Positions 2,596 through 32,873 are shown, numbered from the stretch's first letter. The stretch: DNA of 64,000 nucleotides from Escherichia coli (GCF_050320075.1 NZ_CP190022.1), one strand, 5' to 3'. Notes: generated from the letters alone by a model not told the origin. A program made the numbers and translations.

Positions 2596-3210
2596 CTATC
2601 GATGGTTGATTGCGGCGAGCACATCCTCTGTCTCTTTCATCCTGGCGTTATAACGCTGCGTGTGTTTTTCAAGTTTTGCCTGCGCATGCAGCGCTTCTTC
2701 TTCCGTTACAGTTCCATGAACTTTGCCATCCAGACCATAACGCGGCGTACCTGCGACTGATATACGCTGCAGATATTTGTAACCGCCAGTAATCATTCTT
2801 ACAGCACAATTCCATTCTTTTACAGTTAGTCCACACTCAGGACTGGCCGAAATAAAAGCCATGACATCCTTTGAGATGCCTATTTTAAATGCATGATATC
2901 CCCCCTCTTCAGCCCGTAACTGAGGGAATGTTTTTTTAACACAGTCCAGACTGTGTCGGATAAACTCATGATTCCATCTATTGTTCTTCTTTTTTTTCTT
3001 CTTCTTACGTCCTGTTTTTTTCTGTTGTTCCGGGGAACCGGCCACTGTGGCTGGTATTTCAGGAGGTAATGAGTCGGTTTTAAATTCCATTACTGGCGCT
3101 GGTTTTATATCATCAGGAACAGCCTGTACGGCATCATCCTGGTGAAAAAGAATTCGTCTTTTTTTCTTAATAATAACAACAGGTGACGGTTTCTTTGTGA
3201 CACTGCCCAT
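2596..3210 (-). CDS. Hypothetical protein with an internal poly-lysine tract (about 204 aa from ATG at 3210; track ORF extends to GTG at 3246)
   Basis: ORF 2596-3246 in track; ATG at 3210 preferred because GAGGTG sits 6-7 nt upstream; product has a K-rich run encoded by a poly-purine tract and a C-terminal globular part I cannot place. Confidence 0.5.
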   Translation of the reverse strand: MGSVTKKPSPVVIIKKKRRILFHQDDAVQAVPDDIKPAPVMEFKTDSLPPEIPATVAGSPEQQKKTGRKKKKKKKNNRWNHEFIRHSLDCVKKTFPQLRAEEGGYHAFKIGISKDVMAFISASPECGLTVKEWNCAVRMITGGYKYLQRISVAGTPRYGLDGKVHGTVTEEEALHAQAKLEKHTQRYNARMKETEDVLAAINHR

Positions 3211-3309
3211 ATACACACCTCTGCGTATCGTTAATCTGTAATTCACGACATACAGATAGTATATATCTAAGTCAGCAAAGTCACCAACAGAATAATGATG
3301 ATATTTATT

Positions 3310-4020
3310 TCATGACTGTTCACGAATTATCACTCTGGATTCCTTCCTGGTGACATAAGTACAGTTATCAGGTACATCTTCCATAATAAAAGACATGGCT
3401 CCAATTTTTACATTACTGCCTATTTTTACGTTAAGCCCGATAATACACGTATGGGCACCTACATCGACATTATCACCAATAACGATATAATTCTCTCTGC
3501 TGTCAGATTCCTTTTCGCCAATGGTCGTATTCTGCCGTATAATCACATTCTCACCGATCTTTACATTTCCGTGAATGACGACACCTGAATGGTGGGGCAG
3601 CACGAGGCCTTTACCAATCTGCGCCCCCAAACCAATATCACATCCATACTTTGCCATAAGCGCATTTTTTATCTTGATCGCACATTTTCGTTGTTTTTTA
3701 TTCCCCGATATATACATTTCATTAGCCAGACGCCACCACAGAAGAAAACCTCTCTGCCTCTGCATACCGTTCCTGATAAGCCGGTGAAAAACAATCTTAT
3801 CCCGCATGATAACTTCTGCTTTCCAGTATTCCAGAAGATGACGTTTTTTTCCTGATAATAAAAATGTGCCAATATGGAAATAAGAAATAGGATTTTTTAT
3901 CAGCATACGCAAATTTTCAGATAACAATGAATACAGATGTATTTTATATACACAGATAAAACCGCGCAACAGACATAAATATGACAGTAGCCATGAAAAA
4001 GCAGAGTGTCCTTGACCCAC
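3310..4020 (-). CDS. Hexapeptide-repeat acyl/acetyltransferase (serine O-acetyltransferase-like left-handed beta-helix); start uncertain (internal ATG at 3906 would give about 198 aa)
   Basis: C-terminal half is a classic hexapeptide repeat run (GCDIGLGAQIGKGLVLPHHSGVVIHGNVKIGENVIIRQNTTIG...IGDNVDVGAHTCIIGLNVKIGSNVKIG); track ORF start at 4020 abuts the miniature transposable element. Confidence 0.6.
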   Translation of the reverse strand: MGQGHSAFSWLLSYLCLLRGFICVYKIHLYSLLSENLRMLIKNPISYFHIGTFLLSGKKRHLLEYWKAEVIMRDKIVFHRLIRNGMQRQRGFLLWWRLANEMYISGNKKQRKCAIKIKNALMAKYGCDIGLGAQIGKGLVLPHHSGVVIHGNVKIGENVIIRQNTTIGEKESDSRENYIVIGDNVDVGAHTCIIGLNVKIGSNVKIGAMSFIMEDVPDNCTYVTRKESRVIIREQS

Positions 4021-4026
4021 GATATT

Positions 4027-4312
4027 GGGGTCCGCTTGGAATTCGGAAATTTTCCCACGCTAAGAGAATTGAGTTGAACGAGTGGTTACATCCAGGCCAG
4101 CTAACTCACTGAACGTAAAGGCTGTACGAAATGTTCTGACCGTCCGATAACCGTTTGGCTTACTTCCGTACATTCCCTTGCGTGGATGTACAGAATTGTA
4201 CGATTTCGGACACCAAAACCGCTGTTGTCCCGCCATTCTGGCGATTCCTGAAAGTTATTTGACTAAAAAACAGTCTTAACGTGGTTTATTTTCCGAATTC
4301 CAAGCGGACCCC
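4027..4312. mobile_element. Tn3-family-derived miniature inverted-repeat element (TIME-like), 286 bp, no transposase
   Basis: 38-bp terminal inverted repeats beginning GGGG and ending ACGCTAAG / ACGTTAAG (4027-4064 and 4275-4312, outer 23 bp identical), the hallmark of Tn3-family ends; interior too small to encode a protein; no 5-bp target duplication visible. Confidence 0.6.
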
Positions 4313-4675
4313 TGTACACGCCCCGATACTGAACTGGTCAACACTATGCTGGATAGCTCTGTCGAAACGTTAAATGCTGGCGAACGACCGGTGATACACA
4401 GTGACAGAGGTGGGCATTATCGCTGGCCAGGCTGGCTGGAAAGAGTGAATGCAGCAGGTCTTATTCGCTCAATGTCCCGTAAAGGATGTTCACCTGATAA
4501 TGCCGCATGCGAAGGCTTTTTCGGCAGACTGAAAACGGAAATGTATTATGGGCGTAAATGGTCGGGCATCACGCCAGAAAAGTTCATGCAGCAAGTGGAT
4601 GCTTACATCAGATGGTATAACGAGCGGCGTATAAAATTCTCGCTGGGTGCCGTCAGCCCCAAAATGTACCGCTAA
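4313..4675 (+). pseudogene. IS3-family transposase (OrfB) C-terminal fragment, 5'-truncated at the miniature element
   Basis: In-frame translation from 4313 (CTRPDTELVNTMLDSSVETLNAGERPVIHSDRGGHY...SMSRKGCSPDNAACEGFFGRLKTEMYYGRKW...YIRWYNERRIKFSLG) carries the DDE-domain C-terminal motifs of IS3/IS150-group transposases; the N-terminal two thirds are absent. Confidence 0.7.
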
Positions 4676-29532: not shown

Positions 29533-31089
29533 TTGTACAGGAAAATGACTGGCGTGTCTTGTATTAAAGAAAAATCAAAATATACTTTTGAGAGAGCAAA
29601 ACAGTTTTATTTTATGTTGTGGTGTAAAGAGTCACTGATTTATCTGTTGTTTTCTGTGCTTGTTACATGGTGTTGCGGATATACAGTGAAAAACACCCTG
29701 GGGAATGTGCTTATATTGTTCCTGATGTTGTTGTTGGGGCGGCAGAATGTTATTTCAGCAACGTGTGTCTGTATCTTTCTTTTGTTAAGTGCATTCTATG
29801 CTCCGGTTGGGATGATTTACGGAAAAATAAACAACAGTTTTATTGCGTCTGTAATGCAGACAAATCTAAATGAGGCAGGTGAATTTATCACAGGCATACC
29901 TGTTCTTTATTTTATTGTTTCACTGATTATTGCTGCTTTTACATTCTGGTTCTGGCGTAAGCGTGATAAAAGCCACCAGGGATTTATCTTTCTGTTGTTC
30001 TTTATCGTATTGTCAGTAAATGCATGGCCAAAACGTATGGTTACGAATGTAATGACAGGGATAGCTGAAACCAGAGAAGAAATGATGCGATATGAATCGC
30101 TGAAACACAATCAGAAAGATTCATGGGATATTGTGAATGTGGAGAAGAAATATAAAACCATAATTATCGTAATTGGTGAAAGTGTCAGACGGGATTATCT
30201 TTCTGTTTATGGGTATCCTTTGCCGACAACACCATGGTTGAATTCTGCTCCGGGTATATTTATTAATGGGTATTTCTCCGCAGCTCCGAATACGATAGGT
30301 TCACTCAGCAGAACACTGACTCTTGATTACACTGAAACAGGTAATCCGGGTAATAATATTGTTACGCTTGCCAGAAAAGCCGGATATGAGACGTGGTGGA
30401 TATCAAATCAGGGCTCTTTAGGGCGACATGATACGCTGATTTCTGTCATCGCCGCCAATGCGGATAAGAAATATTTTCTTAAGGAAGGGAGCTCTTCTTC
30501 CCGTCGCATTGATGATGAAGATATGCTTCAGTATGTCAGGGAAGCTGTTAATTCGTCTTCTCCAAAAGTGATTTTCATTCATATGCTGGGGTCCCATCCT
30601 AATCCCTGTGACAGACTTTTTAATGATGCACAGCCGTTCAGGGAATTATTCGGAAATAAAGTATCCTGTTATTTATCAACATTGCTTAAGCTGGATCGGT
30701 TTCTTCAGGCAATTTATAACATGACGACAGAGCATGGCGATGATTTTGCCATGCTGTATTTTTCTGATCATGGGCAATCCGTCACTTCAGACAGCACCCC
30801 TGTGCATCATGCGCCAGGTTTGCGTTCGGGATACGATGTACCTCTCATGATGATGGCCAGTGATATTACTGAGCACCACCTCAATCATGTGCATATCAGT
30901 GCACGTCGTTTTCCCGAGATTTTTCAATGGATCACAGGGATACAAACCAAAAATCTGCCGTTAAGTTTTTCTTTGTTACAGAATGATTTCGCTGAAAGTG
31001 TTTCTGTATTCAATGGTGAACGTGACGTTCCGGTAATGTCTTTGCCAGAAGAGCCGATACTGACCGGAAATGCTGAATCAGAAAAATAA
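29533..31089 (+). CDS. Phosphoethanolamine-transferase-like membrane protein (N-terminal multi-TM domain + sulfatase/alkaline-phosphatase-type catalytic domain, EptA/MCR-like architecture)
   Basis: Five predicted N-terminal TM helices then sulfatase-type motifs (IIVIGESVRRDY, HMLGSHPNP, YFSDHGQS); alternative start at ATG 29545. Confidence 0.65.
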   Translation: MYRKMTGVSCIKEKSKYTFERAKQFYFMLWCKESLIYLLFSVLVTWCCGYTVKNTLGNVLILFLMLLLGRQNVISATCVCIFLLLSAFYAPVGMIYGKINNSFIASVMQTNLNEAGEFITGIPVLYFIVSLIIAAFTFWFWRKRDKSHQGFIFLLFFIVLSVNAWPKRMVTNVMTGIAETREEMMRYESLKHNQKDSWDIVNVEKKYKTIIIVIGESVRRDYLSVYGYPLPTTPWLNSAPGIFINGYFSAAPNTIGSLSRTLTLDYTETGNPGNNIVTLARKAGYETWWISNQGSLGRHDTLISVIAANADKKYFLKEGSSSSRRIDDEDMLQYVREAVNSSSPKVIFIHMLGSHPNPCDRLFNDAQPFRELFGNKVSCYLSTLLKLDRFLQAIYNMTTEHGDDFAMLYFSDHGQSVTSDSTPVHHAPGLRSGYDVPLMMMASDITEHHLNHVHISARRFPEIFQWITGIQTKNLPLSFSLLQNDFAESVSVFNGERDVPVMSLPEEPILTGNAESEK

Positions 31090-31181: not shown

Positions 31182-31424
31182 TCAGTGAATATGCTGACCT
31201 GTTTTTTCGCGAATATCAGCCCCCTGTAATTGTATCAATATACCCTCTCCGTTGAGCATCAGGCTGTCCAGTGAATGGATCCCACTCCTCCTCATCAGTT
31301 CGTAGCAGAGTGTACTCAGCATGGCAAGTGCAGCTTCTGATGATTTACAGTGTGTATTCAGGAGGGTAAAAAATTGTTCAAAAACATCCGGGTTTATACT
31401 GGTGCTTTGATATTCGTTACTCAT
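31182..31424 (-). CDS. Hypothetical small protein (80 aa from ATG 31424)
   Basis: GGAAGGAAA RBS 7 nt upstream of ATG 31424 (track ORF 31182-31544 has an unlikely N-terminal extension); no family recognised. Confidence 0.45.
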   Translation of the reverse strand: MSNEYQSTSINPDVFEQFFTLLNTHCKSSEAALAMLSTLCYELMRRSGIHSLDSLMLNGEGILIQLQGADIREKTGQHIH

Positions 31425-31608
31425 AGTATTTCCTTCCAGGTCATTATTACTTCCAGATTTAACATGATGTCTGTAACCATAAAATAATGAACGTGTTCCG
31501 GGAATCCTTGCCGTGTAGTTTCCCGTAAAAATACTGTTGTGCATTACATGTCATTAGGTGGAAACCGATTGTGGCAGACTGAAAATCGATTAGAATAGCG
31601 GCGGGCGC

Positions 31609-31902
31609 TTGAGGCTGTATGCTGAAAGCGTTTTGTGGACGGCATGCAGCAGAAAGCCCCAGGCGATTTTTTTATCAATCAACCCAGGGCCCACTGTAAT
31701 GCCTCAACAACATTATAGTAGCCCGATGACGGCCGAAAGGCAATGGAGGGGCTGCGATGCCACAACGAACGTTTTTAATAATGTTAATCGTCGTCTGTGT
31801 GACGATACTGTGTTTTGTCTGGATGGTGAGGGATTCGCTTTGCGGATTTCGTATCGAGCAGGGAAATACAGTGCTTGTGGCAACGTTAGCCTACGAAGTT
31901 AA
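31609..31902 (+). CDS. pndC: Overlapping translational-coupling reading frame of the hok-family module (mok/PndC-like)
   Basis: 97-codon ORF overlapping the toxin ORF in another frame, as in hok/mok and pndA/pndC. Confidence 0.55.
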   Translation: MRLYAESVLWTACSRKPQAIFLSINPGPTVMPQQHYSSPMTAERQWRGCDATTNVFNNVNRRLCDDTVFCLDGEGFALRISYRAGKYSACGNVSLRS

Positions 31903-31909
31903 ACGTTAA
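31757..31909 (+). CDS. pndA: Hok/Gef-family type I membrane toxin (50 aa, MPQRTFLIMLIVVCVTILCFVWMVRDSLCGFRIEQGNTVLVATLAYEVKR)
   Basis: Not in the 60-aa track; found by reading: GGAGGGG RBS, ATG 31757, TM helix followed by the conserved hok-family C-terminal segment; downstream GGCGGCAGG-AAAT-CTGCCGCC hairpin. Confidence 0.85.
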   Translation: MPQRTFLIMLIVVCVTILCFVWMVRDSLCGFRIEQGNTVLVATLAYEVKR

Positions 31910-32067
31910 CGGGCAACATGGCGGCAGGAAATCTGCCGCCGGATTGTTGCGAAAGCAAACCTCAATGCGCCCTTTTTTACCTGGATTTCTGCAGCGCGTT
32001 TCAGCATAGCATGCAGTTCTGTGCTGATCCTTGCTTCCAGTCGGGCAGTTTGTGTTGCTGATGGCAT
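31906..32067 (-). CDS. Small ORF (53 aa, MPSATQTARLEARISTELHAMLKRAAEIQ...), ribbon-helix-helix-like N-terminus
   Basis: Not in track; AGGAAG 9 nt upstream of ATG 32067; stop overlaps the pndA stop on the opposite strand; downstream of the excA terminator; N-terminus resembles RHH / DUF1778-type antitoxins but no partner gene present. Confidence 0.3.
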   Translation of the reverse strand: MPSATQTARLEARISTELHAMLKRAAEIQVKKGALRFAFATIRRQISCRHVAR

Positions 32068-32222
32068 GATTTGTACTTCCTGAATACACTGAACGTCAAA
32101 TTGCCGTATTGTGCTAATTACAGTCTGATACAGGGACGGCAGACAGGCATTCTGCCTGAAAAGAAAAAGCCGGTTCAGAGAAAACCGGCTGACGGATTAT
32201 CGTCTAACAGTTGGTCGCTACC

Positions 32223-32873
32223 TTAAAATACTTCTGCAACAGGAACACCGGCAACTTTTTCCCACTCTTTAACCCGATACCGAATCATCTGCGGGAAACG
32301 TTCCTTGTACTCATATCCACGTGCAGCCATGGTGTGCATGGTGTTGGCCAGCGTCCTTGATGAGATGCCGGAGATTTCCAGTGGGATCATCGGCAGACTC
32401 ACATATGTAGTGTGGATTTCCAGCTTGCCGTCTTCAGCAACCGTGCGGGTAAAGTTGTGAATATCCAGACCAATCACATCCATCACATTGTTTGGGTAAA
32501 TGCGCACATACAGCATGGTGCCGTTTTTAATGTCGATCCCGAAATAACAACTCTTCGAGAATGACAGTTGCTCGTAATCGCTGGTCGGCGCAAAGAGACA
32601 GCTTTCTTTTATCTGCTTAACAACCTGCTGGATTTTCTTTTTCTTCGCTCTGGTTCTCAGATATAGCCAGAGTGGGGGAATAAAAAGAAGAAAATAACAT
32701 CCATATGCCAGAATAAAAAGGCTTGTTGAATTCGTTAGTTTATCATCTAATAAATATGATGTATAAGCTGTTGCGTATAAAGCTAAGCACGGAATGCCTA
32801 ATAAAAAATAAGCGTTGCGGGCCAAGTGGTAATATGCCCACCAGGAAGGATATCTGCTTTTTGTTTTGTTCAT
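32223..32873 (-). CDS. excA: Inner-membrane protein in the entry-exclusion position (ExcA-like)
   Basis: 216-aa protein with two N-terminal TM helices immediately downstream of traY; followed by a hairpin terminator (about 32165-32200). Confidence 0.5.
   Translation of the reverse strand: MNKTKSRYPSWWAYYHLARNAYFLLGIPCLALYATAYTSYLLDDKLTNSTSLFILAYGCYFLLFIPPLWLYLRTRAKKKKIQQVVKQIKESCLFAPTSDYEQLSFSKSCYFGIDIKNGTMLYVRIYPNNVMDVIGLDIHNFTRTVAEDGKLEIHTTYVSLPMIPLEISGISSRTLANTMHTMAARGYEYKERFPQMIRYRVKEWEKVAGVPVAEVF

Follow-up and report, generated by a model that had tools for sequence, protein, structure and literature searches.

The 64,000-nt stretch of Escherichia coli DNA analysed here (NZ_CP190022.1, assembly GCF_050320075.1; the window) carries an I-complex backbone with the gene order trbABC, a nuclease gene, genes for an ECs1377-family protein, a DUF2569 protein and a phosphoethanolamine transferase, then pnd, excA and traY. 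The plasmids nearest to the window are typed IncK2/Z. The pnd locus is a hok-family type I toxin–antitoxin module, and on the strand opposite to it a 53-codon open reading frame (ORF) begins between pnd and excA, crosses the 3′ end of the module and terminates at the stop codon of the toxin gene. The features of this region are collected in Table 1.

Table 1. Features of the pnd–excA region, with positions counted from the first nucleotide of the window
Feature	Positions	Strand	Description and basis
Candidate pnd mRNA promoter	31569–31596	+	TTGTGG-16-TAGAAT; relaxed hexamer scan (8/12 matches); predicted start near 31603
Full-length pnd mRNA	31603–31979	+	Leader, pndC/pndA coding region and 3′ fold-back end; Rfam, fold and homology limit
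5′ tac-like element	31603–31614	+	GGGCGCUUGAGG; pairs with the 3′ fbi-like element in the minimum free energy (MFE) structure
PndB (Sok-like) antisense RNA gene, approximate	31650–31743	−	Putative; opposite the pndC start
pndC (mok-like) overlapping frame	31699–31902	+	Frame open from 31609; in-frame ATG at 31699
pndA	31757–31909	+	Hok/Gef-family toxin, 50 aa, MPQRTFLIMLIVVCVTILCFVWMVRDSLCGFRIEQGNTVLVATLAYEVKR; ORF list and profile matches
fbi-like element and T-run	31960–31979	+	CCTCAATGCGCCC; 3′ end of the pnd mRNA; MFE pairing; last conserved pnd stretch
53-aa chimeric ORF	31906–32067	−	RefSeq WP_021580032.1; ATG start, AGGAAG 8 nt upstream
Read-through tail of the ORF	31906–31980	−	Codons 30–53 and stop; antisense of the pnd 3′ UTR, not tacA
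Deletion junction	31980–31988	.	CCTGGATTT; surviving copy of the imperfect 9-bp direct repeat CC(C/T)GGATTT
tacA-derived part of the ORF	31981–32067	−	Codons 1–29; of the ribbon–helix–helix (RHH) fold, strand A and helix A only; identical to full-length TacA at 29/29 aa
Retained tacA ribosome-binding site (RBS) and upstream region	32068–32185	−	Presumed promoter/operator, about 118 bp; homology to tacA upstream regions
Intrinsic terminator-like hairpin and T-run after excA	32168–32190	−	Insulates the tacA stump from excA read-through
excA	32223–32873	−	Right-hand neighbour; surface exclusion gene of IncI1 type; NCBIfam NF033891 (251 bits, cut-off 100)

The pnd module and its flanks

The PndA protein matches the Pfam HOK_GEF model (PF01848) with an E value of 2e-12, its residues 7–46 aligning to model positions 3–42 of 42, and it is annotated as ‘Hok/Gef family protein’ in all related records. 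The NCBIfam models for HokA (66 bits) and the Hok family (41 bits) match as well, both below their curated equivalog/subfamily cut-offs. The overlapping pndC frame is conserved, with the ATG at 31699 and the open frame kept in 12 of 12 distinct pnd copies, including an IncI1 copy that is only 90% identical. The leader of the mRNA, from 31603 to 31759 on the plus strand, is recognized over the full model length by Rfam RF01794 (‘sok’) with a score of 123.7 bits (gathering score 59; E = 4.4e-29). This match lies on the sense strand and has its 3′ limit at the pndA ATG; in practice RF01794, despite its name ‘sok antitoxin’, describes the leader of the hok/pnd mRNA rather than the strand of the antisense RNA.

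The tac/fbi fold-back is a defining trait of hok-family mRNAs. The 377-nt RNA from 31603 to 31979 folds with an MFE of −159.8 kcal/mol (z = −7.3) and its 5′ end is paired with its 3′ end: in the predicted structure, GGGCGCUUGAGG pairs with CCUCAAUGCGCCC (31960–31972), which is followed by a U-run. The position of the candidate pnd promoter agrees with the 5′ end of the Rfam leader match. In hok/sok, the antisense RNA sits opposite the mok start, and on the minus strand of the corresponding region a putative PndB promoter (TTGCCT-17-TACTAT, 31743–31715) was found with 8/12 matches in the relaxed hexamer scan; a stricter promoter scan returned none for PndB.

The closest known system is pnd (pndCA/pndB) of the I-complex plasmids R483, R64 and R16, a type I system of the hok/sok family. 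The module in the window shares with it the 50-aa Hok/Gef toxin, the pndC frame, the RF01794 leader and the tac/fbi fold-back, as well as the placement in the trb–exc leading part of the IncI-type transfer backbone. Its nucleotide identity to the IncI1 copy is about 90%, and PndA carries I8, V13, F31, I33 and E34 where the IncI1 protein has M, I, L, L and Q. Apart from these few residues and the 3′ neighbour, nothing of substance differs. Judged from its sequence, the pnd module is a genuine, intact and ordinary type I toxin–antitoxin (post-segregational killing) module. The Pfam and Rfam matches, the open pndC frame and the stable fold also uphold the original prediction, made from the sequence of the window, that a textbook hok-family pndCA arrangement lies here. 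In the IncK plasmid pCT, inactivation of pndACB was without effect on stability (PMC4083329).

Two genes on the 5′ side of pnd were also examined. The plasmid-borne phosphoethanolamine transferase gene just 5′ of the module (29533–31089, plus strand) encodes 518 aa and resembles CptA (107 bits) and EptA (79 bits), far under every curated cut-off, and it scores at most 28 bits against all MCR families. It is found in many, not all, relatives and is missing from the 100%-identical segment of pHB42-5. Upstream of pnd, an ORF at 31182–31544 on the minus strand is annotated in relatives as an 80-aa hypothetical protein. Its product shares 35% identity over 54 aa (E = 7e-9) with an 83-aa hypothetical protein of the IncI1 plasmid pHNAH4-1 (L003, 3416–3667, minus strand), the gene for which is convergent to pnd and follows it. 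Members of one uncharacterised family are therefore found on either side of pnd, depending on the I-complex plasmid.

Deletion of tacAT between pnd and excA

The 53-codon ORF is made of two unrelated parts. Residues 1–29, MPSATQTARLEARISTELHAMLKRAAEIQ, are identical to the N-terminus of a 93-aa TacA antitoxin, and residues 9–31 match the Pfam TacA1 model (PF08681) at positions 1–23 of 80 with an E value of 4.8e-4; the protein had no match in NCBIfam. From residue 30 on, no similarity to TacA was found. The stretch that encodes this tail is instead homologous to pnd modules that have no tacA, and it crosses the fbi element and the GGCGGCAG/CTGCCGCC hairpin of the pnd 3′ untranslated region. Neither the length of the tail nor its end goes beyond chance. 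The probability of a stop-free read-through of 24 codons is about (61/64)^24 = 0.32, and the overlap of the two stop codons (TAA of pndA at 31907–31909; TAA of the ORF as the complement of 31906–31908) arises because both lie in TTAA at 31906–31909, which is self-complementary. The retained region upstream of the ORF shares 91% identity with its counterpart at a full-length tacA of the chromosome and 96.6% with that of the plasmid NZ_OQ534116.1 (L006).

The origin of the chimera became apparent on comparison with other replicons. A megablast search of PLSDB with positions 31400–32300 identified pnd homologues in 1,880 plasmids. In the great majority of these (about 1,850 modules), homology stops at 31975–31978, which corresponds to the end of the pnd mRNA. 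The sequence from 31980 to 32185 shares 91% identity with a chromosomal E. coli locus, where it corresponds to the start of a gene for a TacA-family antitoxin of 93 aa together with the region upstream of this gene; a GNAT toxin gene follows. Two IncK2/Z plasmids, L006 and NZ_CP027324.1 (L007), carry at the same backbone position hok (plus strand) followed by tacT, tacA and excA (all minus strand). In these sister plasmids, which preserve the ancestral order, tacT encodes a GNAT protein of 162 aa and tacA a DUF1778 protein of 93 aa, and the two form a canonical tacA–tacT operon.

Alignment of the window to L006 gives two collinear blocks, in which 31636–31988 corresponds to 3153–3505 and 31980–32300 to 4201–4521. 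The blocks overlap by 9 bp in the window (31980–31988), and 704 bp are missing between them. In the parental sequences one copy, CCCGGATTT, directly follows the pnd T-run and the other, CCTGGATTT, lies within tacA codons 27–30, whereas the window has a single copy, CCTGGATTT. The 704-bp deletion took out all of tacT together with tacA codons 30–93, and tblastn found no TacT-like sequence anywhere in the 64-kb window. The converse event, insertion of the pnd module into tacA, was considered and rejected: intact tacAT lies beside the same pnd 3′ end in the sister plasmids, and the junction is that of a repeat-mediated deletion.

These comparisons bear out much of what had been predicted for the minus strand, namely a 53-codon ORF with a good RBS, stop codons that overlap those of the toxin frame, an N-terminus of RHH/DUF1778 type, which is a real homology, and the absence of a partner toxin gene. 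We consider it very probable that the locus consists of an intact pnd module beside an inert remnant of a tacAT deletion and that the 53-codon ORF is the stump of tacA. The tacAT operon would once have been convergent to pnd, between pnd and excA, and one 704-bp deletion between the two copies of CC(C/T)GGATTT would have created the remnant. The surviving tacA start would then read by accident through 24 codons of the antisense of the pnd 3′ untranslated region, and the 53-aa product would be a pseudogene remnant that drifts neutrally. We infer that the deletion had a single origin.

The remnant can be set against the known families. The 29 codons of the stump, its RBS and its upstream region are those of a TacA-family gene, as in the type II systems TacAT, KacAT and AtaRT, which pair a GNAT toxin with an RHH/DUF1778 antitoxin. 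Unlike these systems, the window has no toxin gene and its antitoxin is cut after helix A, which makes it a remnant of the family and not a member. As in other decayed or orphan toxin–antitoxin remnants, a repeat-mediated deletion has cost the locus its toxin gene along with the portion of the antitoxin that neutralises, the surviving frame runs on into foreign DNA under relaxed constraint, and the remnant is annotated inconsistently. It differs from them in that its tail is the antisense of the mRNA 3′ end of another toxin–antitoxin system, which explains the eye-catching stop-to-stop overlap.

Related arrangements were observed in other replicons. In the E. coli chromosome NZ_AP042574.1 (L004), a 137-nt fragment of a hok/pnd 3′ end lies directly after the tacT stop (1666–1801). 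It spans the final third of the coding region plus the 3′ untranslated region, is 88% identical to positions 31859–31992 of the window and is inverted relative to the plasmid arrangement, which suggests that tacAT and pieces of pnd have travelled jointly between plasmid and chromosome. In some IncK2/Z plasmids, pnd is present as two tandem modules (L007, 1859–3496; L005, 481–1580), with either a convergent vapBC pair (L007, 2256–2830) or a 100-aa hypothetical gene (L005, 843–1145) between the copies. Convergent type II toxin–antitoxin cargo appears to settle repeatedly on the 3′ flank of pnd. More speculatively, chromosomal tacAT copies, which encode a TacA identical at 92 of 93 positions, could have neutralised what plasmid TacT remained and thereby made the plasmid copy dispensable, a form of anti-addiction.

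On the right-hand side, the 50 bp at 32135–32185, which include the excA terminator hairpin, are common to plasmids without tacA, in which homology resumes at 32135. The same 50 bp also match the region upstream of chromosomal tacA, in which homology extends up to 32185, which leaves it ambiguous where the original tacAT insertion stopped on the right. Some relatives (L010, 1825–1956; L002, 5057–5266) have extra features between the tacA stump and the full excA, in the form of a partial excA duplicate, annotated as a pseudogene with its N-terminus missing, and a 70-aa ‘HEAT repeat’ ORF. These point to further rearrangement at the pnd–excA site.

Distribution of the junction and a published association

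The junction is confined to a small part of the plasmids that carry pnd. A junction-spanning query of 31880–32100 matched 136 PLSDB plasmids at a coverage of at least 80%, and a query of 31900–32230, which also spans the junction, matched 104 records at the same coverage, in 99 of 5,426 complete E. coli genomes. Intact tacAT was found in 9 plasmids of PLSDB, and about 1,700 other pnd-bearing plasmids have different neighbours, for example the 83-aa hypothetical gene in IncI1. The original prediction had treated the ORF as a discrete gene, for which conservation alongside pnd would be expected. With the junction in 136 of about 1,850 pnd-bearing PLSDB plasmids, the ORF does not follow the module; it is instead what remains of the 5′ end of tacA, joined to antisense sequence of the pnd 3′ untranslated region, with no detectable constraint.

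The WP_021580032.1 protein is found in public databases on more than 1,000 contigs, where it is called ‘antitoxin’, ‘DUF1778 family’ or ‘hypothetical protein’; in several RefSeq records the ORF is not called at all. Our literature search found no specific description of a truncated TacA on these plasmids, and PMC9431474 contained no match. A genome-wide association study (GWAS) published in 2026 reports a ‘hypothetical gene adjacent to hok/sok’, formerly ‘antitoxin’, that shares 60 nt with hok/sok and is associated with chicken-derived IncK2 plasmids at p = 0.045, and its authors ask for functional work on this gene (PMC12987596). The description of the GWAS gene (WP_001546474) fits the family of the 53-aa ORF, to which it may belong. 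The association could reflect a function of the gene and could equally reflect plasmid lineage. An origin as a deletion stump explains the roughly 60–70 nt shared with the hok/pnd module as well as the missing toxin partner, and with such an origin the association probably marks lineage and not function.

Fate of the truncated antitoxin

To define which parts of the antitoxin have been lost, we compared the stump with structurally characterized members of the TacA family. Full-length TacA can be aligned over its entire length with KacA (5ZGN), AtaR (6AJM) and TacA (7AK7), and TacT from the intact copies aligns over its full length with AtaT, KacT and TacT. In KacA, the RHH domain consists of strand A (residues 5–13), helix A (14–28) and helix B (31–51), of which helix B supplies much of the dimer core; R8 and R12 contact DNA, and the C-terminal region (residues 52–86) wraps the toxin (PMC6698736). 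KacA with an N-terminal truncation still neutralises its toxin, and neutralisation resides in the C-terminus (PMC6698736). In KacA numbering, the stump stops at residue 28 (alignment offset +1). It has no helix B, in place of which stands unrelated read-through sequence, and the toxin-binding C-terminus is absent with the deleted codons 30–93. Because only strand A and helix A are retained, the stump is without the parts for dimerisation, operator binding and neutralisation. By analogy with KacA, it would be unable to dimerise, to bind the operator or to neutralise TacT.

The substitution pattern was examined in the window and eight relatives with the same junction; the ORF is intact and has a usable Shine–Dalgarno sequence in all nine sequences. 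Variable sites make up 8 of 162 nt in the ORF (4.9%) and 29 of 539 flanking nt (5.4%). Six of the eight are non-synonymous (R13M, I14S, T16A, M21V, A40T and H50R), the other two being synonymous; R13 aligns with the DNA-contacting R12 of KacA. By contrast, three intact tacA genes, at 3–9% DNA divergence, differ by seven synonymous and no non-synonymous changes in the same 29 codons. The ratios of 6:2 and 0:7 differ by Fisher’s exact test (p = 0.02), on counts that are low and lack phylogenetic independence. Such a pattern is consistent with a relaxation of constraint once the gene had been truncated. Most of the listed cluster members of the 53-aa protein are also 53 aa long; at a divergence of 4% or less, an intact 53-codon frame carries little weight.

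The original prediction had proposed that convergent transcription modulates the toxin mRNA. In its fullest form, a retained tacA promoter would drive a convergent antisense RNA over the fbi element and 3′ fold and so alter 3′ processing, stability or translational activation of the pnd mRNA, tuning killing. The tacA upstream region (32068–32185) did survive the deletion, the minus strand carries no intrinsic terminator from the ORF start to pndA, and the deletion brings this transcription start 704 bp nearer to pnd. Moreover, TacA and KacA are autoregulated (PMC6698736), so that loss of the autorepressor DNA-binding domain would derepress any promoter in cis. Upstream of the ORF, however, the standard scan found no minus-strand sigma-70 site and the relaxed scan none with more than 7/12 matches; a search with a 6-nt seed found no operator-like inverted repeats there. 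The fold of the minus-strand RNA is unremarkable (z = −1.2). The same geometry pre-dates the deletion, as it existed with intact tacAT and only the distance has become shorter, about 1,700 pnd modules function elsewhere with no such neighbour, and a simple repeat-mediated deletion explains the junction. We therefore regard this mechanism as improbable, and the proposed regulatory link of the ORF to pnd finds no support. A later co-option of the stump, whether through an unrepressed promoter that yields antisense RNA on the pnd fbi/3′ region or through a new role for the 53-aa peptide that would explain the chicken GWAS marker, is similarly doubtful.

It is still less probable that the chimera is a functional small protein in its own right, acting as an orphan or anti-addiction antitoxin against TacT of other replicons, as a repressor of tacAT promoters or as a factor in host adaptation. 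Such a role could be read from the intact ORF and RBS in all relatives, the ‘antitoxin’ label given by some pipelines and the GWAS association of an ORF of matching description (PMC12987596). AlphaFold2, run on the 53-aa single sequence, also returned one continuous helix over residues 4–52 with a pLDDT of 92.8; this one long helix is not an RHH fold, and we set it aside as evidence, since such a model is uninformative for a short single-sequence monomer. Helix B, the dimer core, and the whole toxin-binding C-terminus are absent, the substitutions are six non-synonymous to two synonymous and include R13M at the DNA-contact arginine, and what constrains the sequence of the tail is the pnd RNA fold, not the 53-aa frame. 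The p value of the GWAS is marginal, and its signal is a presence/absence marker of the deletion lineage. We infer that the peptide is non-functional. The notion that the ORF is purely a chance frame with a spurious resemblance to antitoxins, to which the 27 ORFs of at least 20 aa that overlap the 1.1-kb region and the read-through tail, indeed a chance extension, might lend weight, has a negligible probability, being refuted by the 29/29 aa identity, the 91–97% nucleotide identity to genuine tacA 5′ ends with their upstream regions and the Pfam TacA1 match (E = 4.8e-4).

The feature at this locus is an ordinary remnant of toxin–antitoxin decay next to a textbook pnd module, with no sign that the 53-codon ORF is a working gene. 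The main value of the finding is a correction of annotation for an ORF that stands on more than 1,000 contigs as ‘antitoxin’ or ‘hypothetical protein’, and, if the ORF is the same, its origin as a stump accounts for an oddity of the published IncK2 GWAS. For the I-complex plasmids, the locus documents the pnd–excA site as a slot for convergent type II toxin–antitoxin cargo, such as tacAT and vapBC, and shows this cargo in the process of being lost.
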